NCBI GenBank assembly: GCA_019057385.1
Contig: JAHQJS010000007.1
Coordinates: 224,001 to 288,000, forward strand
Length of the DNA stretch: 64,000 nt
Origin: Candidatus Borrarchaeum weybense
Lineage (GTDB): Archaea > Asgardarchaeota > Sifarchaeia > Borrarchaeales > Borrarchaeaceae
Reading direction: 5' to 3'
Part shown: positions 12,240 through 47,229 of the stretch, in pieces
How positions within the stretch are numbered: position 1 is the stretch's first letter
Layout: the number at the start of each line of letters is the position of its first letter
Position numbers and translations under genes: made by a program
Notes under the pieces: model-generated
The model's input: only the letters and a program-made list of their open reading frames with translations
Databases searched by the model: none
What the model was told of the DNA's origin: nothing

Positions 12240-13208
12240 TCAAAGGTTTTCTTTGGGTTTTGCTTTTTGTTGAATTGCTAGATTATATGTGAACTACCAC
12301 CCAACAAGTTAGGTGGCTTCTGTCCTCCTAGACTGTTCTGCTTAGCCAACACGGTTGGTTACATTAAGCCTAGTCATCGACAGTTCGGGCTGGTCCACGG
12401 CAGCCCCCGTCCCTCAAGGGACACTTGAGGTCCGACAGTACCCTCATCGGTACTGTGTCTTGTGTACGCTCCCAACGCCAAGCCAGACACCTCGGCATAC
12501 TGCACACTGAGATGGTAGCTAACTGCTATTTAAGTTTTAGGGAGAGCGGTGTGAAAGTGAAACTCTCTACCGCAATTCATCCCCCCAACACGTTGAGGGG
12601 TCTTCTTGCGAATTGGTTATAAATTTTTGATCTTTATTATTTTCAGTTAAGGCAATTACTTCGTCAAACATTTCATTTGCTGTTTCTTTGTTCCCAATTC
12701 TACGGTTTATCTCTGCCATTAAGTATTTAGTTGCAAAAACCCGGTCACTAGGAACTTGTCCTTTACCAACCGCCTTTTCGAAGTAGTCTAAAACAATCGC
12801 TCCAAATCTTTTTTCTTCTTCATTGCTTTCTGCCCACCAGTATGGATCTATCCAGTTATTTGCAAGGGCAAATTCATCTTTCTTAGTTAGTTCCAATTCA
12901 TTCATCGCTTCTAGGCATAACATTGCGCGTTCAAGTTTTTTTGATAACGAATTTCTTGAAAGAGAACCCATTTCATTAATCTTTTTTCTCAATTCTGCAT
13001 TTTCCACTTTAGCATCAAACATTTTTTTAGGCGCACAGAAACCACAATTAGGACAAAGATGGTAAAAAAATCTCACAGGATTAAAGCCCCAATAATTAGG
13101 TCGAAAATCTGTGCGCTTAGATCCATATCCACAGCTTCCTATCTCATTGCTAGTAAAGAGGTTGTCGCAAATTGGACACGTAAGGGAAATCGGGTAAAGA
13201 GTAGTCAT
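12240..13208 (-). CDS. DUF2225-like zinc-ribbon/TPR-like protein, 3' end interrupted by the mini-element
   Basis: CPIC, TDFRP and CPNCGF motifs. The current ORF stops at 12567 inside the element; the pre-insertion C-terminus FIYNLAIQQKAKPKENL* ends at 12240. Confidence 0.75.
12289..12618 (-). mobile_element. Non-autonomous IS200/IS605-family mini-element (330 bp, no ORF)
   Basis: Minus strand: target TTAT, left-end hairpin CCCCTCAAC-GT-GTTGGGGGG followed by ATGAATTGCG, right end GAAG-CCACCTAAC-TT-GTTGGGTGG-TAGTTCAC. No TSD; removal restores the host reading frame. Confidence 0.85.
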
Positions 13209-16622: not shown

Positions 16623-16645
16623 CTATTTCCATATTAATAACTGTC

Positions 16646-33616: not shown

Positions 33617-33749
33617 AATCAAAAAATTGTGAAAACCTAAATCAATAAAAATATCTTTGGCATTTGACAATTCAATCCACGAAATCAACGCATACAAAGC
33701 TATATATTCATCAAAGTACACATATGAAAGATCTACCTAAAGTCACTCT

Positions 33750-33773
33750 TGTTACTGTTACATAACAGTCACA
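33750..33773 (+). promoter_or_regulatory. Palindromic operator copy 5 (TGTTACTG TTACATAA CAGTCACA)
   Basis: Upstream of the H+-ATPase gene; followed by CACGTTTAATAAT. Confidence 0.85.
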
Positions 33774-33901
33774 CACGTTTAATAATCAAAGCTTCTGCAA
33801 AATACGGATAAGTTAATTATGATACGTAATTAACACAAAATTTCACCTAAATAACAAGAACTTGATCTTTTTACCAGAAAAGAAATAGAGGATTTAATAT
33901 T

Positions 33902-38945: not shown

Positions 38946-39069
38946 AAGAATATGAGTGCTGAAATTTACCAAAGATCTCGTTTAAACATTCTTAGGCTTA
39001 TTTAGCTTCTGCTTCTAAATATTACCAATATCGTTTCCTTCCATTTTGTTTTTCATAATTAATCCTCTT

Positions 39070-39093
39070 TGTTACTGTTGTCTAACAGTCACA
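39070..39093 (+). promoter_or_regulatory. Palindromic operator copy 7 (TGTTACTG TTGTCTAA CAGTCACA)
   Basis: Upstream of the 39152 ORF; followed by CACGTTTAATAAT, identical to copy 5. Confidence 0.85.
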
Positions 39094-39151
39094 CACGTTT
39101 AATAATTAATTCTAGTTTTCTTTTGTTACGGAAAAAAGATGGATAAAAAAG

Positions 39152-39733
39152 ATGGATAAAATGACAAAAAATCGGAAAAAAATACGGCGAGAGATTACCG
39201 CAGTTGGCATCATATTCTTAAGCTTTGGACTAATCTTGGTAGCAGTGGGAATGCGCCCAACCTTTAAAATTGTTAAAAATACTGAAACACTACTTTACGT
39301 TACAGATTACCCACTTTCAGAGAATTACGTCTATTTTGATACAACATTGAAACCAGGAGATATGGCCTCGGGAACAATTAAAACTTCGAATCCTGTAAAC
39401 TTCTATATCTTCGACAGTGATCAGTATAACAATTGGCAAACGATTTATTCTTACTCTCCAAATGCGCCTTCGATTTTCACAAGAACCCATTCCAACAATA
39501 TCGCATTTAGCGTCCAAATTTCGTATGAGGATACTTATTATTTAGTTGTTCACAACTACTATAGTTATTCAGGCTGCGTGATAAGATCTATGTATGTAGA
39601 GAGGACATATTTTACAAGGATAGAGCATTTTGATTATTCACTATCAATAGCTGGTTTGCTCACGGTGTTGACTGGTCTTATTATTGCTGCAATTGGATTA
39701 TCGACGCGCGTAAAAGTTGAAAACAAAGTTTAA
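39152..39733 (+). CDS. Membrane protein with extracellular beta-sandwich (GOLD/PPC-like)
   Basis: N- and C-terminal TM helices; PVNFYIFD...TYYLVVHN beta pattern. Confidence 0.65.
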   Translation: MDKMTKNRKKIRREITAVGIIFLSFGLILVAVGMRPTFKIVKNTETLLYVTDYPLSENYVYFDTTLKPGDMASGTIKTSNPVNFYIFDSDQYNNWQTIYSYSPNAPSIFTRTHSNNIAFSVQISYEDTYYLVVHNYYSYSGCVIRSMYVERTYFTRIEHFDYSLSIAGLLTVLTGLIIAAIGLSTRVKVENKV

Positions 39734-39771
39734 CATTTTTACACTGGTTATAGTGCCCTCAACAGTTTTAT

Positions 39772-39995
39772 CTGATATTGAAGAGAAACCTCCCTCCGAG
39801 AGGGTGGAGCTGAATTGCCATCCGTTTCTCGTGAGGGAAATGTTGTGTTTTCTCCGTAAGACGCCTCCATTCGGTATGAACAAACGGATTTCCGTGTGTT
39901 TCACTTACACACAGGATTATTTAACTAACTTAACGGACTATTGGCAAGTGCAGTATCCAAGGTGGTCGGCTTGGCGTGAAGGCGTACTCAAGGTA
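39772..39995 (+). mobile_element. Partial IS200/IS605-derived mini-element related to the 12.3-kb element
   Basis: Left-end-like hairpin CTCCCTCCGAGAGGGTGGAG + TGAATTGC, TTATTTAA box, then GTGCAGTATCCAAGGTGGTCGGCTTGGCGTGAAGGCGTACTCAAG, homologous to 12460-12505(-). No right end seen. Confidence 0.6.
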
Positions 39996-40049
39996 TTTTG
40001 TTAGATTCAAACATTACTGTCTCCCTAAAGTTAGGACACCACCTTGTAG

Positions 40050-40255
40050 GCGAGCTACCTCGTGCTAAAGCCTCAAGGCTTCCTGTTTCTACGACAGACT
40101 CGATCTCCCTGACGGGGTTACGGAGGTAGTAACTCCACAGGCTTACCATCCCTACGCCCCGTAGGTACTCATAGGCTCTATGAGCAACAGACCATATACA
40201 CCCAACGCAATTCATCACCAGGCTGAAGCGGTGATGCTTTCTTGCTTAGCTACCC
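40050..40255 (-). mobile_element. Non-autonomous IS200/IS605 mini-element, family B copy 1
   Basis: Near-identical to 46539-46742; target TTAC, left-end hairpin, reRNA-like GCCTGTGGAG...AAACAGGAAGCC, ends TAGCTCGC. Confidence 0.85.
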
Positions 40256-40315
40256 GTAATCGAACGTTCGTAAATTTGTAAATATTATTAAAATATAAAT
40301 CAGAGCCTTTTTTTC

Positions 40316-40339
40316 TGTGACTGTATTTTAACAGTCACA
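40316..40339 (+). promoter_or_regulatory. Palindromic operator copy 8 (TGTGACTG TATTTTAA CAGTCACA)
   Basis: Upstream of the CydA-like operon; followed by AACCTTTTATAG. Confidence 0.85.
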
Positions 40340-40375
40340 AACCTTTTATAGATAGCTTCCTCATACGTAAGCTTC

Positions 40376-42061
40376 ATGTCTACTATTAAATCACTTTTGG
40401 AAATGAAAAAAATCCTGATACTAGTGCTAGCCTTAGCAGTATACATCGTTATTCTAGTCTTTGTTATAGTGCCGTTGCAAGGTGGATTAATTCCTTCTTC
40501 TGTGATAAGAAGTGAAGACTTTCAAAACGCAGATCCTCAATATAGAGAAACACTACCTATACAAACAGTTGACTTAAGCTCTTCAGGACGTTCTATTTTC
40601 ATTGCAGTAGTCATGCTTTCCCATGTTCTTTACGCTAACTTACACCTTGGAGGTTCATGGGTAGCCATCGTTACAGCATCTCTTTATCTCAAAACAAAGG
40701 ATAAACGTTACGAGAACCTCGCAAAATCCCTCACCCTATTCAATGTAATCTTATTTAGCGCTGGTGCTACCTTTGCGATAGCAGGAGTGCTTTTCTTTAT
40801 ATCTTTATATCCAGTATTTGCCGCGCAGTTATTTCATATCTATTGGTGGCCCTTTTTTGTTGAAGCAATAACCTTCGCTTTGGAGATCTTCTTTCTATAT
40901 TCATTTTGGTTTACTTGGGGTAAAATCAACGTCAAATGGCATCAATTTTTAGGCTATGGTTATGCGATTGATGTTTTTATTCAGACATTTCTTATCAATA
41001 TGGTCGCTAGTGGAATGCTGACCCCAGGTGGCGCTTCGATCGTCTATAGCCAAACTGGACTTATGACTATTCCAATAAGCGAGGCGTGGGCATGGTGGCT
41101 CAATCCAACCACTTTACGACTCCAACTTCATCGATTAGCTGCCGCAGTTTCCTATTTTGGCTTTCTAGTGGCAATGTTGGGTACACTCCACTATGGCGAT
41201 CGGAAAGATGAAATCTCGAAAAAACACTGGGACTGGGTTACATCCTATGGGTTAGCGTGGGGCTTGCTCGGATTAGTTTTTCAACCAGCACTGGGACTAA
41301 TCTACATGATGGCCATCAGCGATGCACAGGACTCCGCCTTTCAGATGATCATGCATGGCCCGCGTGCCTGGGAAATGTTACTAATGGTTGCATTGTTTTC
41401 TGCCCTTGTCATTTCATCGCTTATTTACTTTTATGATCGCCGGGAGCGAATACTTACGAAAGTTGAAACACGCACATGGCATACATTATTCAAAATCTGC
41501 TTAATTGCTGCAGTAATATGTGCAATAATTCTTGTTCAACCTGCTTGGCTGGGAGCCACCTTCATTGACGATCCTAACGCTTGGGAGAACCCCTTAGGAA
41601 GCATGGACTTCAAATATCCTACACTATTTACTTTGATCATACTTGGAGTAATTGTTCTGACTATAGATACAGCCATATTGTCCGATCTACATGAAGCTGA
41701 GTGGGGACATCCGTCTAAAACTGCACGAACGGCAGCAATGCTTTCAGGAATATTTGCCTCATGGATTGTAGTAGTAATGGGGTATGTGCGTGAATCCGCT
41801 CGCTCACCGTGGACAATATATAACATAATCCCAGTGCCTCATTCATATCCAGACTATCCAACACCCATTCCTTTGCCGCAAATTTTCGTCGTTTGGGCCG
41901 TTGTTATATTTCTCGCGCTGACAGTCTTTTGGTACACCTCTAAGGTCACAGCGTATCACCCTGAGGAAGCTGAAAAGATAATTCCAAGACTTACAAAGAA
42001 AGAACGGAAGAAAATCGAAGAAAAATTTCCACCACCCCTGGAGGCAGTCGAGGAGACATAA
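40376..42061 (+). CDS. Cytochrome bd subunit I (CydA)-like protein, non-canonical
   Basis: SHV (heme His), E..FALEIFFLY..W, MLTP, LHRLAAA; GYVRESARSPW replaces GRQPW. No CydB next to it. Confidence 0.8.
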   Translation: MSTIKSLLEMKKILILVLALAVYIVILVFVIVPLQGGLIPSSVIRSEDFQNADPQYRETLPIQTVDLSSSGRSIFIAVVMLSHVLYANLHLGGSWVAIVTASLYLKTKDKRYENLAKSLTLFNVILFSAGATFAIAGVLFFISLYPVFAAQLFHIYWWPFFVEAITFALEIFFLYSFWFTWGKINVKWHQFLGYGYAIDVFIQTFLINMVASGMLTPGGASIVYSQTGLMTIPISEAWAWWLNPTTLRLQLHRLAAAVSYFGFLVAMLGTLHYGDRKDEISKKHWDWVTSYGLAWGLLGLVFQPALGLIYMMAISDAQDSAFQMIMHGPRAWEMLLMVALFSALVISSLIYFYDRRERILTKVETRTWHTLFKICLIAAVICAIILVQPAWLGATFIDDPNAWENPLGSMDFKYPTLFTLIILGVIVLTIDTAILSDLHEAEWGHPSKTARTAAMLSGIFASWIVVVMGYVRESARSPWTIYNIIPVPHSYPDYPTPIPLPQIFVVWAVVIFLALTVFWYTSKVTAYHPEEAEKIIPRLTKKERKKIEEKFPPPLEAVEET

Positions 42062-42747
42062 TGATATCTGATGTAAAAGTGACTGAGGAACAGATCTTTG
42101 TATATCTAGGGACTCAGACATTAAAATTCCCCAGATTGCATTTGCCAGAGGTTTTTTTGCACTGGCAGGCTGAAGCAAGGCTAAAGATGTTTGATATATT
42201 AGAAAATAAGGGCGCGGATGTCATAAAGACGCATCCCGCCCATCTTCCTGTTTTTGCTACACTGGGAACCAGTTCATTTCCAATCAACCTGACTGCTAAA
42301 GGGATAGGTCTCTTGCCGAAGCTAAAATATCTTGAAGAATTTACAACTCTTTTCAAGGACACCCAAGCCAATGCCGATGGGCAGTCATGGCACGATACGC
42401 TTTCACTAAGAGTGGAGGCTGTTAGAACCTTTTATAGTAATCTAGAGAATTTTGACCGCGGGATATTGGGCGGACTGGAGATTTTTGAAGGTCGTACGAC
42501 CCAAAATTTAAAAAACTATCCGCTGGCGTCGATTTTATATATCGGAGAAGCTCCCAAGTTCCCAAGTTACCAGTTCAATGGAGTGGTCGTTTTTGTAGAT
42601 TCTGAAAATCCATATTTTCGCTTTTTAAGAGCTGCTCGTGAATTATTCGCTTTTGATTCGTTTCATATTCCCCAAATTCGTTATCCTTATGGATTTCTCT
42701 TTCATGTGGTAGAAATTCTAGACAAAACTCCGTTTCCGAGGCGATAA
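42061..42747 (+). CDS. Hypothetical protein, possibly PNPOx-like split barrel
   Basis: Coupled to the CydA-like gene; TTQNLKNYPLASILY...SYQFNG pattern. Confidence 0.55.
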   Translation: MISDVKVTEEQIFVYLGTQTLKFPRLHLPEVFLHWQAEARLKMFDILENKGADVIKTHPAHLPVFATLGTSSFPINLTAKGIGLLPKLKYLEEFTTLFKDTQANADGQSWHDTLSLRVEAVRTFYSNLENFDRGILGGLEIFEGRTTQNLKNYPLASILYIGEAPKFPSYQFNGVVVFVDSENPYFRFLRAARELFAFDSFHIPQIRYPYGFLFHVVEILDKTPFPRR

Positions 42748-42748
42748 A

Positions 42749-44176
42749 ATGTATAAGCGTATCCTTGTGGCCCTAGATGGCTCAATATGTTCAAATATTG
42801 CTTTAAAAACAGCGCTAGCACTTGCTGAACGAGGAAATCAAACACATCTCATCGGCTGTCATGTCTACGCCGCTCGCATGCATCGAACTCGCTTTGAGGA
42901 AATGGAGCCTGGGTTGCCAGAGTCTTATCAGGAAGAAGAACGTTTAAATTACCTACGCCATGCTCACGATGATATTATTGGAACAGGGATGAAACTCATC
43001 TCCGATGCATACTTAGCCCCTCTGATCCAGAAAGCCGAAGAAAAAGGATTGACTTACGAAGGCGTAACTCCTGAAGGACGCAACTATGTGGAACTTCTTC
43101 GCGTAATACAAGAGCATAATGCCGATCTTGTTGTGATGGGAGCCTGGGGACATGGACATGTTCCAGAGGGACTCATAGGAAGCTTAACCGAGCGCATCTT
43201 ATTTCTAGCCCCCAATAGTGATATATTAGTAATGAAAAAATCTTTGAATTTCGAAAAGTACCCTATTGTGGTAGGAATTGATGGGAGTGAAAACAGTTAT
43301 GCAGCCATGAAAAAAGCAGTTTCTATCGCTCGTGCATTTGGTTCTAATGTGGAAGCTGTGGCGGTCTATGATCCTTTCTTTCATACAGGGGTCTTTCAGA
43401 CGATCACTGAAGCCTTACCAGATGAAGCAAGGCAACGCTTCAATTTTGCTGCTCAGGAAAGGCTTCATGATGAAATCATAGATCAAGGGCTAGAGAATCT
43501 TTATCGAGAGGGGTTGGAACGAAGTGTCTTAATGGCACAATCAATGGGAATAGAAGTCCACCCAAATGTATTAGCAGGAAAGGTATATTCTCAACTTTAT
43601 CATTACGCTACACTAAGGGGAGCAGGGTTGATAGTGATGGGACGGTGGGGATTGCATCGAGAAAAAGATTCGATTATCGGATCCAATACTTTGAATATTA
43701 CCAGATTGAGCACTACAAATGTGTTGGTGGTGACTCCTCCAACGGAACCATTAGAGGTGCCTAAACTTTCCCAAGAAGCGCAGAATGTCGCATTACCTTG
43801 GACGCCAGAAGCGGAACTTATGATGGAACGCGTTCCAATTTTTGCGCGCGAAATGGCACGTCGAGTAATTGAGGATCAAGCTCGGGAAAGAGATCTTTCA
43901 GAGGTCACTCCTGATATAGTTCAAGAAATTGCTCAACGCTTAGGAATGAAAAAGGGACGACACGACAAAGAAGTGGCTGATGCTCCAGAAGCTCAAATGG
44001 TGAGTTTCCGCAAGATCAAAAGACTTGCTCCCGACTTTCATCGCCATATTCTTCGTAGCAAATTAATAGGACAAACGGTGCGGACAGGTGAGCGTATCTT
44101 GGTCTATGAAGTTCTAGAGACGGATCCGCCGGGTCTGGTTAGGGTTACGGAAAAAACCCGTCTGGAGTTTCGATGA
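42749..44176 (+). CDS. Tandem universal stress protein with PCP_red-like and CDC48-domain-2-like C-terminal domains
   Basis: Two USP domains (ILVALDGS; IVVGIDGS; G..G...GS), WTPEAELMMERVPIFAREMARRVIE, and a C-terminal beta domain. Confidence 0.85.
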   Translation: MYKRILVALDGSICSNIALKTALALAERGNQTHLIGCHVYAARMHRTRFEEMEPGLPESYQEEERLNYLRHAHDDIIGTGMKLISDAYLAPLIQKAEEKGLTYEGVTPEGRNYVELLRVIQEHNADLVVMGAWGHGHVPEGLIGSLTERILFLAPNSDILVMKKSLNFEKYPIVVGIDGSENSYAAMKKAVSIARAFGSNVEAVAVYDPFFHTGVFQTITEALPDEARQRFNFAAQERLHDEIIDQGLENLYREGLERSVLMAQSMGIEVHPNVLAGKVYSQLYHYATLRGAGLIVMGRWGLHREKDSIIGSNTLNITRLSTTNVLVVTPPTEPLEVPKLSQEAQNVALPWTPEAELMMERVPIFAREMARRVIEDQARERDLSEVTPDIVQEIAQRLGMKKGRHDKEVADAPEAQMVSFRKIKRLAPDFHRHILRSKLIGQTVRTGERILVYEVLETDPPGLVRVTEKTRLEFR

Positions 44177-45129
44177 TGGTAGAAACGCAAGCGACCGTGA
44201 TCATAGAAGAAGTATGGAAATATTACGGAAAAATTAAGGCTCTTGAAAATGTTAACTTGAGAATTCAGAAGGGTGAGATCTTCTTTCTGCTGGGACCGAA
44301 TGGTTCTGGGAAGTCTACTTTGCTCAGAATATTGAGCACTATCTTCTCTCCTGATAAGGGTCGATTTTCTCTCTTTGGTCTTGATGGGATAAGAGACCGG
44401 ACAGTCATCCGCAAACAGATAGGAATTCTTTCAGAGCATAGTAGTCACTGGGATAGACTTACTGGTTATGAAAATGCTTGGTTTTTTGCTAGTTATTACA
44501 ATATCCCTCAAAAAATGATAAAAAATCGTTTAAACGATCTTTTTCGTAGGTTTGGGCTATGGGAAAAACGAAATGATGCAGTTGTCACCTATTCTTATGG
44601 AATGCGACGCAAACTATCTATTATAGAGGCTTTTGTTCATCAACCAAAGCTTTTATTGCTTGATGAGCCCTCCATGGGCCTCGATTACGTTTCCAGATTG
44701 AAGTTGTTTGATCTTATGGAACAGGAAGCACTTAAAGGAACAACAATAATTGTAGCCACAAATGATGTAAATGAAGCATCCCAAATGGCTAAAAGGGTTG
44801 CTCTTCTCCGACAAGGAACAGTAGTGATTACAGACGAACCAATGGAATTAGTTAAATCGCTGAAAGCTCTAACTCGGATAACACTTTGGGTAGCTTCCCC
44901 CATTCCTTTAACTTCACTTCAGGCTATTAATGGAGTAGAAGGGGTAGCAGCAAATAAGGAAGCAGAAAATAGCTTTCAAATAGTTTTCCTCGTACGCGAT
45001 GGACGTAAAATCCTGCCACATATTGTAAATGAAGTAGTGAAAGAGAATGGAGCAATTTTAGGTATGGATGTGAATGAGCCGAACCTAGGTGATGTCTTTC
45101 TTAAACTAACCAGAGAGGAGATCCACTAA
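44173..45129 (+). CDS. ABC transporter ATP-binding protein (DrrA-like)
   Basis: GPNGSGKS, YSYGMRR, LLLDEP. Confidence 0.93.
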   Translation: MMVETQATVIIEEVWKYYGKIKALENVNLRIQKGEIFFLLGPNGSGKSTLLRILSTIFSPDKGRFSLFGLDGIRDRTVIRKQIGILSEHSSHWDRLTGYENAWFFASYYNIPQKMIKNRLNDLFRRFGLWEKRNDAVVTYSYGMRRKLSIIEAFVHQPKLLLLDEPSMGLDYVSRLKLFDLMEQEALKGTTIIVATNDVNEASQMAKRVALLRQGTVVITDEPMELVKSLKALTRITLWVASPIPLTSLQAINGVEGVAANKEAENSFQIVFLVRDGRKILPHIVNEVVKENGAILGMDVNEPNLGDVFLKLTREEIH

Positions 45130-45824
45130 TGCTCCCAAGTCGTTATTGGCAAAAGGAATTCTTAGAAGAGATAAAAAGTAAAAGAACTCTAACGATGAAA
45201 TTTCTACTGCCACTGCTTCTCCTGAGTCCTCTTGCCATATTTTCGATTCCTTACAATATTAAAGCGGGAGGTTTTACTGCGGCAGTGCTTTTCATAGGAG
45301 TGTTCGGTTCGGCGGTAAAATTAGTACGCCTAAGAGAGAACAGAATGTTAGAACGACTAGCAGTGCTTCCTATACCTTCTGCATATATAGTTTGTGAATA
45401 TATTTTAATCAATTCATTTTTCGACGGTCTTCAACTTCTTGCCCCATTATTAATAATCTATGGACTTGAGCATTCCCAGCCGATTGCCTTATTATGGATT
45501 TTCGCCTGCTATATCGCTGCTCTTTTAACCGCTAATGCTTTAGGTGTATTAGTTACTCTAATATCGGGTACTTCAGGAGAAGTACACCTTTTTGCATTTC
45601 TGACTGTTTTGGTGGTGGGAGGACTTTCAGGTCTATTTATGATACTTTTACCCAGCCCGTTGAGGGAGATTGGATTTATAATGCCTTTCCGGCATTTATT
45701 CGATGCCTTGCTCTATGGATGGGGATTTTCTCTACCTCAAGTTCCATTTCTTGGGCCGCTTATGGGAATAGCGTGGCTAGTTGGAACTTTAACTCTTTCT
45801 TCACGTCTATTCCGCTTTAAATAG
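45129..45824 (+). CDS. ABC-2 type permease
   Basis: About 6 TM, RENRMLERLAVLP; coupled to the ATPase gene. Confidence 0.85.
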   Translation: MLPSRYWQKEFLEEIKSKRTLTMKFLLPLLLLSPLAIFSIPYNIKAGGFTAAVLFIGVFGSAVKLVRLRENRMLERLAVLPIPSAYIVCEYILINSFFDGLQLLAPLLIIYGLEHSQPIALLWIFACYIAALLTANALGVLVTLISGTSGEVHLFAFLTVLVVGGLSGLFMILLPSPLREIGFIMPFRHLFDALLYGWGFSLPQVPFLGPLMGIAWLVGTLTLSSRLFRFK

Positions 45825-45978
45825 ACTAAAAACGGGATTTACTTGTCAACTAAGTTATAAATCACACAGGATCAACAGTGAAATGGACAGCATAGTATTG
45901 ATGATGATATAAAAATGATGATTTTTATTTTTCAGTCAATATATAAGCGCGTCAATTACTTTTGAGATAGATCTACGT

Positions 45979-46002
45979 TGTTACTGTTAGATAACACACA
46001 CA
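45979..46002 (+). promoter_or_regulatory. Palindromic operator copy 9 (TGTTACTG TTAGATAA CACACACA)
   Basis: Upstream of the zinc-finger gene; followed by CATTCATATAAA. Confidence 0.75.
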
Positions 46003-46063
46003 CATTCATATAAATTGTAAGAATTCTAAATATTAACAAAAAATACAAAGAGAAGGTGAAAAA

Positions 46064-46432
46064 ATGTCTAAATGGAATGAATATGTTGATTACGGCCAGT
46101 GTCCTACATGTGGCATGAAATACAAGCATAAGAAAGAACTTCTAGAAAAGTTTAAAGAACATCATGGTATGCCAGGGTTCATTGAAGTGGTGGAGAAACA
46201 CATGGATGACTATGGTACATGTCCTACATGTCAACTCGAATATAAATCGAAAGAAGAACTGAAAAAACACATAGAAGAGCATCATGGTTTACCAGGTTAC
46301 ATAGACGTAATGGTTAGCAAGCTAGATGAATCTGGCAAATGCCCGACATGCGGACTTGAATACAAGAGCAAAGCGGAACTTGAGAAAACCATAAAACAAC
46401 ATCGTGGTATGCCAGGACCAGGTGCTGTTTAA
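46064..46432 (+). CDS. Triple-repeat C2H2-like zinc finger protein
   Basis: Three 40-aa repeats CPTCxxxYKxKxEL...H(H/R)GxPG; AGGTGA upstream. Confidence 0.8.
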   Translation: MSKWNEYVDYGQCPTCGMKYKHKKELLEKFKEHHGMPGFIEVVEKHMDDYGTCPTCQLEYKSKEELKKHIEEHHGLPGYIDVMVSKLDESGKCPTCGLEYKSKAELEKTIKQHRGMPGPGAV

Positions 46433-46538
46433 AACATTAAGAACCACAGTTGTAACGAAACATAAGTAAAATTAGAAGTGTTCTTGCCACAATATACACT
46501 CCTGGCATCTATCTTTTTCTAGATTACAGTATACTTTG

Positions 46539-46742
46539 GTGATCTACCTCATGCGAAAGCCTCAAGGCTTCCTGCTTCTCCGACAGACTCGATCCCCTTG
46601 CAGATTACGGAGGTCTTATCTCCACAGGCTTACCATCCCTACGCCCCGTAGATACTCATAGGCTCTATGAGCAACACAATATATAACCCCAACGCAATTC
46701 ATCACCACGCTGAAGCGGTGGTACTTTCTTGCTTAGCTACCC
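46539..46742 (-). mobile_element. Non-autonomous IS200/IS605 mini-element, family B copy 2
   Basis: Target TTAC, AAAG + left-end hairpin, TTATATA box, reRNA-like scaffold, GAAG + right-end hairpin ending TCAC. Confidence 0.85.
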
Positions 46743-47229
46743 GTAATAGTTAAACTCTAAAAAACAAATAATTAGCCTTGTTTAAGCCTACCGATAGCAA
46801 TTGCCTAAGACTATTTTTTCTTGGGTTTCCCACGTAAAAAAAAATCGTTCTTGATGGTTTACCATTCCAACGTTATTAAACCTGCATTTCAAGCATTGTT
46901 TTCATCCTCTTCCTTACTGATAACTTCGGCGAGTTCGGGGACACGTATTAATTTAATTTATAGCGAGTTCTAATCTTGCCTGATGGACTTCTCTTATTAA
47001 AAGAATTTCCTTATATTTTTATCGATGTTTACATGGACTAAAATGAGTGATTTTCTTAAAAAGTCAACTAGTGTGTTTAAACATAGGTTTTATGAGCATT
47101 TAATCCTCTACAGGATCATCACAATAAACTTCACGCCTTTTCGATATCAACTTATATTTTATATGGAGGTGAAATAGCAAGCTTTATATATTGTTAACTC
47201 TACATTACTATTGATAACTCTACATATTT

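Follow-up and report, generated by a model that had tools for sequence, protein, structure and literature searches.

The DNA analyzed here (the window) is a stretch of 64,000 nucleotides from the archaeon Candidatus Borrarchaeum weybense, corresponding to positions 224001-288000 of contig C7 in a genome (designated G000) of 4.18 Mb, 37% GC and eight contigs. Within the window lie two related mini-elements, both on the minus strand, which direct reading of the sequence places at 40050-40255 (copy 1) and 46539-46742 (copy 2). No conserved open reading frame (ORF) is present inside them; a 76-aa ORF that runs across copy 1 is not present in copy 2. Each has the ends of an IS200/IS605 insertion sequence and carries a scaffold resembling the omega-RNA, or right-end element RNA (reRNA), that guides the nuclease TnpB. 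A first-pass annotation, made by a model from the letters and a list of ORFs, had interpreted these elements as stand-alone TnpB guide-RNA cassettes, and our analysis supports that interpretation. The annotation gave their positions and strand correctly, although "near-identical" was somewhat generous for copies that share 88% identity across 212 nt.

Read along the minus strand, each copy consists of TTAC, a 15-nt linker, AAAG, an imperfect hairpin, a TATA-like box and a scaffold of ~117 nt. The block containing the scaffold is GC-richer, and the right end consists of GAAG, a second hairpin and a terminal TAGNTC(A/G)C. The order of features originally reported, from TTAC through left hairpin, TATA-like box, scaffold and right hairpin to TCAC or TCGC, is borne out in both copies, as is the difference between their 3' flanks. 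The right-end hairpin, however, had been drawn as a short AAGCC/GGCTT stem, and is actually a 21-nt CCTCG-N11-CGAGG stem-loop. The features are as follows; all are on the minus strand and were read from the sequence unless another basis is given.

40256..40259, minus strand: copy 1 TTAC target, the expected TnpB target-adjacent motif (TAM), adjoining the left end on its 5' side
40205..40255, minus strand: copy 1 left end, composed of the 15-nt linker (40255-40241), AAAG and the imperfect hairpin
40240-40237, minus strand: copy 1 AAAG guide tetranucleotide
40236-40213, minus strand: copy 1 left hairpin CATCACC-GCTTCAGCC-TGGTGATG (CATCACC...GGTGATG)
40192..40199, minus strand: copy 1 TATA-like box GTATATGG, a weakened form of the family sequence TTATATAG, 31 nt before the scaffold start
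40050..40168, minus strand: copy 1 omega-RNA-like scaffold, 119 nt (covariance model and homology to tnpB 3' ends)
40082-40079, minus strand: copy 1 right-end guide GAAG
40078-40058, minus strand: copy 1 right hairpin CCTTG...CGAGG
40057-40050, minus strand: copy 1 terminal sequence TAGCTCGC
40030..40049, minus strand: copy 1 predicted guide CTACAAGGTGGTGTCCTAAC, positioned according to the omega-RNA rule for TnpB; found nowhere else in the genome
46743..46746, minus strand: copy 2 TTAC target
46692..46742, minus strand: copy 2 left end, composed of the linker, AAAG (46727-46724) and the hairpin (46723-46700)
46679..46686, minus strand: copy 2 TATA box TTATATAT, 31 nt before the scaffold start
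46539..46655, minus strand: copy 2 omega-RNA-like scaffold, 117 nt (covariance-model match)
46571-46568 and 46567-46547, minus strand: copy 2 GAAG and right hairpin, followed by the terminal sequence TAGATCAC, ending in TCAC
46519..46538, minus strand: copy 2 predicted guide CAAAGTATACTGTAATCTAG, position predicted; unique in the genome

A BLAST search of the genome, which the first-pass annotation had proposed as a check, was combined with a motif scan and produced 36 ORF-less copies with a common layout. These fall into two size classes, of ~204 bp (16 copies) and ~315 bp (18 copies); besides both classes, there are two copies whose left end is unpaired, one 590-bp partial copy and full-length elements. 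TTAC lies exactly at the extrapolated left boundary in 29 of the 36 copies and is off by one in the others. Because so many copies share the same layout and exact boundary, the arrangement is far beyond chance. Family copies end in TCAC, of which the TCGC terminus of copy 1 is a variant. Flanking contexts are unrelated among family copies, and the flanks of the two window copies are unrelated to each other and unique in the genome.

The ends have the geometry of IS200/IS605 elements. A subterminal imperfect hairpin with a guide tetranucleotide on the 5' side of its foot is present at both ends, and insertion occurs 3' of TTAC without target-site duplication; terminal inverted repeats are lacking. 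TTAC is located 19 nt 5' of the foot of the left hairpin (consensus CACCAC-AGCTTCAGC-GTGGTG), and AAAG lies directly 5' of that foot. At the right end, GAAG comes before the hairpin CCTCR-N-GCTTTAGC-N-YGAGG, after which there are 8 nt, the last four being TCAC; the loop of this hairpin, GCTTTAGC, is a mirror of the left one. Because a sister clade has CCCCA/TGGGG in place of CACCAC/GTGGTG, the left stems covary, and one base pair of the right hairpin (alignment columns 130/142) varies between A-U and G-C. The left pairing of TTAC with AAAG is identical to that of IS608, and the right pair is GAAG/TCAC. This right pair had been said to obey the IS608 guide/cleavage pairing rule, and it would fit the position-wise form of that rule, reportedly from the 2008 work of Barabas. 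In all short copies, the first ~8 nt after TTAC are hypervariable (for example, 40255-40248 and 46742-46735), with an identity of 0.51 versus 0.84 for the next 41 nt.

Precise empty sites in genomes of the same genus show that the elements are mobile and define their exact boundaries. At G000:C6:541574, the element-free genome G031 reads ACTTAC followed directly by TATAATTTCAGTTC, whereas G000 has ACTTAC, 204 bp of element and then TGTAATTTCAGTTC; the element is also missing there from G020, G050 and G041. At G000:C7:753274, the empty G050 allele reads ..TCTAC followed by TTAGATAATTGG, whereas G000 has ..CTTAC, 204 bp and then TCAGATAATTGG. A target duplication is absent at both sites. When the joined flanks of the 36 copies were searched against the genome itself, no spanning match, and thus no paralogous empty site, was found. 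The window copies have no clean empty site in G050 contig C89, where the locus is rearranged, and the two loci above were used instead.

This rearranged G050 locus (G050:C89:18000-37900) lacks the counterpart of window positions 38960-44927, which include copy 1 and most of an adjacent operon, and it also lacks copy 2 (comparison with 38960-46861). It carries window positions 44928-46523 inverted, truncating a gene for an ABC ATPase. The difference reflects either a rearrangement hot spot or an assembly artefact of a metagenome-assembled genome (MAG). We also considered a composite transposon, in which the left end of copy 2 and the right end of copy 1 would move the 6.3-kb operon between them, and rejected it because neither a supporting empty site nor a second copy was found. 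Beside the G031 empty site (G031:C176:5400-5560) is a 44-nt insert, TTAATCGGCGGGAAGTCCCCTTCC..GGGGTAGTTCAC, which resembles a solo right end of the tnpA-type element.

The 3' 117 nt of the mini-elements are homologous to the omega-RNA region that overlaps the 3' end of tnpB, as established by alignment with 13 tnpB-linked regions. As in known omega-RNAs, the scaffold stops at the right-end boundary and the predicted guide is the adjacent flank. A covariance model was built solely from the 13 tnpB-linked copies, with no mini-element included. It nonetheless matches copy 2 (73.3 bits, E 1.8e-17) and copy 1 (71.7 bits, E 4.7e-17); each match covers the complete model and ends exactly at the element boundary. 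All mini-element scaffolds from the motif scan score 64-87 bits with this model. Rfam has no family that reaches its gathering score in the window, and between 39800 and 47000 it gives chance-level matches of snoRNA type (E 1-8); the scaffold lineage is not in Rfam. A weak match of our model at 46694-46837 on the minus strand (24.9 bits, E 8e-5) spans the left hairpin of copy 2 and 95 nt upstream, and most likely results from the left hairpin being taken for a right hairpin.

Mini-elements and tnpB-linked copies share a set of helices: P1, a closing CCUG/CAGG helix, a long helix of the GACUGAAU/GUUCGGUC type, an apical stem and the right-end hairpin. A stem P3 initially drawn as GGAG/CTCC was superseded by the longer GACUGAAU/GUUCGGUC-type helix in folds of the tnpB-linked copies. 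In the second subclade of parent elements, P1 is wholly swapped from CCTACG/CGTAGG to GGTAGG/CCTACC. Paired cells make up 96.2% of the alignment, versus 31-42% when partners are slid. Compensatory changes occur in seven pairs, and the observed covariation score was reached by none of 500 shuffles. An RNAalifold consensus of the 13 tnpB-linked copies, obtained independently, also has seven covarying pairs, and tnpB-linked scaffolds fold better than shuffled sequences (z -3.3 and -3.6).

The apical stem differs between the two groups. In tnpB-linked copies, with a scaffold of 148 nt, it is GGAATAC..GTATTCC inside CTNT..ANAG, and in mini-elements it has become a compact CCC-GCAA-GGG stem-loop. 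Because one stem-loop replaces another, the architecture of the RNA has been retained where coding no longer constrains it. The scaffold, whose conserved core is GCCTGTGGAG...GAAGCAGGAA, is the best-conserved part of the element, with pairwise identities of 0.885 among the short copies and 0.962 among the long ones. The corresponding values are 0.84-0.85 and 0.885-0.90 for the hairpin ends, and 0.82 and 0.85 for the TATA box; the spacer between TATA box and scaffold reaches 0.58 in short copies. Conservation is confined to the element.

The presumed parents of the mini-elements reside in the same genome, where the TnpB zinc-ribbon domain gives 41 matches and a single Y1 TnpA occurs. The cognate TnpB clade comprises seven intact and five truncated genes in two subclades, with copies at C6:869532-870815, C5:22984 and C6:305988 among its members, and the ends and 3' region of its elements are homologous to those of the mini-elements. 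Short mini-elements have their left end and TATA box in common with the element at C6:305.9k, and long ones with the element at C5:22.8k. The TnpB that we examined (427 aa) matches the ISDra2 TnpB structures 8H1J and 8EXA (E 4e-18) and the Pfam families PF01385 (OrfB_IS605) and PF07282 (Cas12f1-like TNB domain). Its motifs GIDFG, QDENLK and IDRDFN are present, and the alignment shows that the RuvC D/E/D residues and the two CxxC pairs of a zinc finger are kept. In the parent elements the tnpB reading frame reaches almost to the right end; therefore, the scaffold region there is also coding.

Together, these data make it practically certain that the window copies are IS200/IS605 deletion derivatives that retain a TnpB scaffold. 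The cassette interpretation had been made to depend on covariation among copies and on a cognate TnpB in the same genome. Both were found: seven compensatory pairs with a tnpB-trained model that recovers the two window copies, and seven intact cognate genes with the active-site residues kept in the examined one. The proposal that tnpA and tnpB had been dropped stands with respect to tnpB. A loss of tnpA is not supported, as the parents carry only tnpB and nothing indicates that a tnpA was dropped.

The genome's one intact Y1_Tnp gene (C7:194221-194586; 131 bits) belongs to an element whose right end has the same GCAGGAAG (GAAG)-hairpin-TAGTTCAC design as the mini-elements. No other tnpA-tnpB IS605 element exists in the genome; this one occupies G000:C7:194000-195900, ~28 kb ahead of the window. 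After its TCAC end come 10 nt (ATAGACTTGG) that repeat 10 nt inside the left end of the element, which lacks a TTAC at the expected distance before it.

In 14 of the 16 short copies, the TATA box (consensus TTATATAG) begins 29-32 nt, with a mode of 31, before the scaffold. The usual archaeal spacing between TATA box and start site would put transcription initiation at the first scaffold base. The distance therefore fits that of an archaeal promoter, and the deletion that gave rise to the short form would thus have joined the scaffold directly to the tnpB promoter. Accordingly, the suggestion that these elements keep a promoter and reRNA agrees with a TATA box at what is predicted to be start distance and with a scaffold homologous to tnpB 3' ends. 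The long form keeps, ahead of the scaffold, a 47-59-nt internal piece of tnpB that forms a stem-loop and that lies ~213 nt upstream of the scaffold in full-length elements. This tnpB-derived stem-loop, GGAGGGAT..GCACACTTG-loop-CAAGGTGC..ACTCC, constitutes the 5' domain in all 18 long mini-elements (nt ~122-180). The same stem-loop is duplicated in the 5' untranslated region of one full-length element (G000:C6:869076-870875, nt 262-302 and 1376-1434). Its recurrence suggests that it either belongs to the native omega-RNA or serves as a regulatory mimic.

For 49 scaffolds, we took the 16 nt on the 3' side as the guide and searched the whole genome for matches of at least 14 of 16 nt preceded by TTAC. 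All 49 guides are distinct, and none has a second such match in the genome. In the empty G031 allele, TTAC is present and the sequence has one mismatch to the G000 guide. The first-pass annotation had proposed that each insertion supplies a new guide. Each flank does provide its own guide; because none of the 49 has a second TTAC-flanked match, each copy is better read as targeting its own vacant site. The guides thus fit the published homing or retention role rather than a library directed against other targets.

Such a library would serve the host, with the cassettes programming TnpB against viruses, plasmids or host promoters in the manner of spacer arrays or TldR. The number of cassettes per effector (36 ORF-less copies versus seven intact cognate tnpB genes) would suit this function, and stand-alone omega-RNAs are said to allow the targeting of additional sites (PMC10691335). 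However, each guide is simply the local flank, with the search result given above, and the cognate TnpB retains its nuclease residues, unlike TldR. The occupied and empty alleles in congeners also fit ordinary insertion polymorphism, and we consider a host-serving library very improbable.

We propose instead that the copies are non-autonomous, protein-free derivatives, of the type called palindrome-associated transposable elements (PATEs) or miniature inverted-repeat transposable elements (MITEs), whose transcript probably acts in trans as a TnpB guide RNA against the element's own empty site. Each copy keeps what this would require: a left end (TTAC target, AAAG DNA guide and hairpin), its own archaeal TATA promoter, the ~117-nt scaffold and a right end (GAAG, hairpin and TCAC). 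Transcription would start at the first scaffold base, ~24 nt beyond the TATA box, and would cross the right end into the flank, yielding the scaffold and a guide of ~16-20 nt. TnpB from the seven intact related elements would bind this RNA in trans. When the single Y1 TnpA excises the mini-element and rejoins the donor site, the restored site would have TTAC and match the guide, so that TnpB could cut it. Repair from an element-bearing copy would follow, and the element would therefore be retained and spread without encoding a protein. Transcription, TnpB loading, cleavage and mobilization by this particular TnpA are steps that we infer; the anatomy, the homology to tnpB elements, the covariation, the mobility with precise empty sites and the presence of intact TnpB and TnpA are shown.

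Several observations weigh against this proposal. Folded singly, mini-element scaffolds are no more stable than shuffled sequences (z -0.35, +0.40 and -0.40). The 36 mini-elements alone, with a mean identity of 89%, have one covarying pair, and most of the covariation signal arises when they are compared with tnpB-linked copies, which are also under coding constraint. Part of the conservation of right-end sequences is explained by TnpA, which also requires them in cis. With simple patterns, the left end of the tnpA-bearing element gave no match to TTAC. No tnpB carrying the exact trimmed scaffold is present in this genome, and the compatibility of mini-element scaffolds with the resident TnpBs is assumed. 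Copy 1 itself, with its weakened TATA-like box GTATATGG and TCGC terminus, may be decaying. One candidate for a tnpB with a trimmed scaffold, at C4:380415-380530 (64.6 bits, 116 nt), was rejected; it has a different scaffold, a TTCAA end and an unrelated TnpB.

Some of these points would be expected if the copies were inert hitch-hikers, that is, PATEs or MITEs that persist only through the ends on which TnpA acts in cis, with the scaffold being an extended right end that has no RNA function. The folding of the scaffolds, the near absence of covariation among mini-elements and the failure to find an exact tnpB-linked parent of the trimmed scaffold in the genomes and metagenomes searched all agree with this explanation. 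In vitro, ~45-56 nt of the IS608 right end are enough for TnpA binding (RE45 and RE56 substrates; PMC3201880). Here, by contrast, the elements retain 117 nt, whose conservation exceeds that of the hairpin ends. The deletion junction also sets the TATA box at a nearly constant distance from the scaffold (29-32 nt, mode 31, in 14 of 16 short copies), the whole scaffold is retained in two independent size classes, and the apical stem has been cut down to a tetraloop hairpin rather than randomly lost. We therefore regard inert passengers as unlikely and retain the proposal of a trans-acting guide RNA.

A different kind of RNA function is conceivable from the position of copy 2, whose predicted transcript points, in antisense orientation, to the 3' end of an ORF at 46064-46432 on the plus strand. 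The copies might give rise to antisense or small RNAs acting on neighbouring genes, or to sponges that draw TnpB off from autonomous elements in competition between elements; the greater number of mini-elements relative to tnpB-bearing elements would favour such a decoy. However, the copies lie in unrelated flanking contexts, conservation is limited to the element and nothing ties the copies to particular gene classes, making a regulatory or decoy role highly unlikely. The ORF itself encodes 122 aa of a C2H2 zinc-finger family (Pfam E 1.5e-9), a domain typical of eukaryotes, and is located just upstream of the predicted copy 2 guide.

Each of the other four genomes in the genus also has the element, as do two from a different family of the same phylum. 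We scanned public genomes and metagenomes with an exact pattern of the trimmed stem, which detected it in MAGs named Candidatus Borrarchaeum yapensis, Borrarchaeota, Sifarchaeum, Hermodarchaeota and Promethearchaeota. The trimmed stem is also present in related ORF-less elements of Ethanoperedens, a Methanomicrobia MAG and Hadesarchaea. A co-oriented tnpB adjoining the trimmed scaffold was found beside none of the 36 copies here, none of 47 public-genome copies and none of 83 copies on metagenome contigs, although this absence is partly built into the search, because the pattern is the trimmed stem, which in gene-bearing elements is coding sequence. We tentatively raise the possibility, which we consider rather unlikely, that the trimmed 117-nt scaffold marks a guide-RNA-only lineage. 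Such a lineage would be an independent replicator, a hyperparasite that uses the TnpA of others for movement and their TnpB for retention, and that spreads geneless between archaeal phyla. The promoter fusion, which may let the primary transcript begin at the scaffold, would be in keeping with this idea.

Other repeated sequences occur around the two copies. A palindromic motif, TGTnACTGTTA-n-TAACAGTCACA, is present at eight intergenic sites between window positions 16645 and 46018 (for example, 40315-40355, 33749-33789 and 39069-39109) and looks like the operator of a local regulon. One site lies between copy 1 and the start, at 40376, of an operon resembling those for cytochrome bd. A second, unrelated ORF-less IS200/IS605 mini-element is located at ~12240-12590 on the minus strand, with left end ..CGCAAGAAG-ACCCCTC..GGGGGG and right end ..GAAGCCACC..GGTGGTAGTTCAC, and has a weak covariance-model match at 12289-12362. 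Patchy similarity to this second mini-element is found at 39898-40049, beside the right end of copy 1, in the predicted guide region.

If the proposed mechanism is correct, a selfish element reduced to two DNA ends, a promoter and a guide RNA is still able to draw on a nuclease and a transposase that are encoded elsewhere. Intact cognate tnpB genes are outnumbered ~5:1 by such riders in this genome. For annotation, these loci would be transposon-derived non-coding RNA genes rather than "intergenic repeats." For engineering, a naturally trimmed ~117-nt omega-RNA with its own promoter would mark stems that are dispensable for this TnpB clade. The family also provides insertion-polymorphism markers between Borrarchaeum-like genomes.

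The concept of a stand-alone TnpB-type guide RNA was published in 2021-2023 (Meers 2023; Altae-Tran 2021/2023), and the understanding of OMEGA systems (for obligate mobile element-guided activity) is unchanged by our results. What is new is anatomical detail, namely the fused promoter, the two size classes, the trimmed stem and the precise empty sites, and not a new principle. Two further papers (PMC13565253 and PMC12558985) contain nothing on protein-free omega-RNA elements. The closest known counterparts are the protein-free, omega-RNA-encoding IS200/IS605 elements of Geobacillus stearothermophilus, described together with a role of TnpB in homing and retention (Meers et al. 2023, 10.1101/2023.03.14.532601). 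Those PATE-like elements also lack an ORF and have IS200/IS605 left and right ends. Provision of an omega-RNA for use in trans by the TnpB of other elements, and mobilization in trans by a single TnpA, would be further similarities. Unlike them, the present family has an Asgard archaeal host, an archaeal TATA box fused at what would be transcription-start distance, two size classes and a trimmed apical stem that is not on any tnpB-linked copy here.

According to a summary in PMC10691335, stand-alone mobilized omega-RNAs of OMEGA systems work in trans (Altae-Tran et al. 2021). As far as that summary describes them, they resemble the present copies in being guide-RNA loci without effector or transposase, with effector-bearing loci in the same genome. 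Their activity in trans was demonstrated experimentally, whereas the present copies are known from sequence alone; the latter have the guide 3' of the scaffold, as is typical of TnpB, and keep the full IS605 end geometry.

IS608 has TTAC 19 nt 5' of the foot of its left hairpin and AAAG as its left guide (PMC3201880); its pairs are TTAC/AAAG and TCAA/GAAT. The copies described here share with this Helicobacter pylori element insertion 3' of TTAC without duplication, the 19-nt spacing, AAAG and a right guide 5' of the hairpin. They differ in right cleavage at TCAC (TCAA in IS608), in ending 8 nt after the hairpin foot (10 nt in IS608), in lacking tnpA and tnpB, and in their archaeal host. ISDra2 of Deinococcus radiodurans has TTGAT as its TAM, whereas TTAC is expected here, and its scaffold sequence is unrelated. 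Nevertheless, ISDra2 TnpB and its reRNA (8H1J, 8EXA) parallel the present system in having a homologous TnpB clade, a scaffold that extends over the tnpB 3' end to the right end, and a guide taken from the flank.

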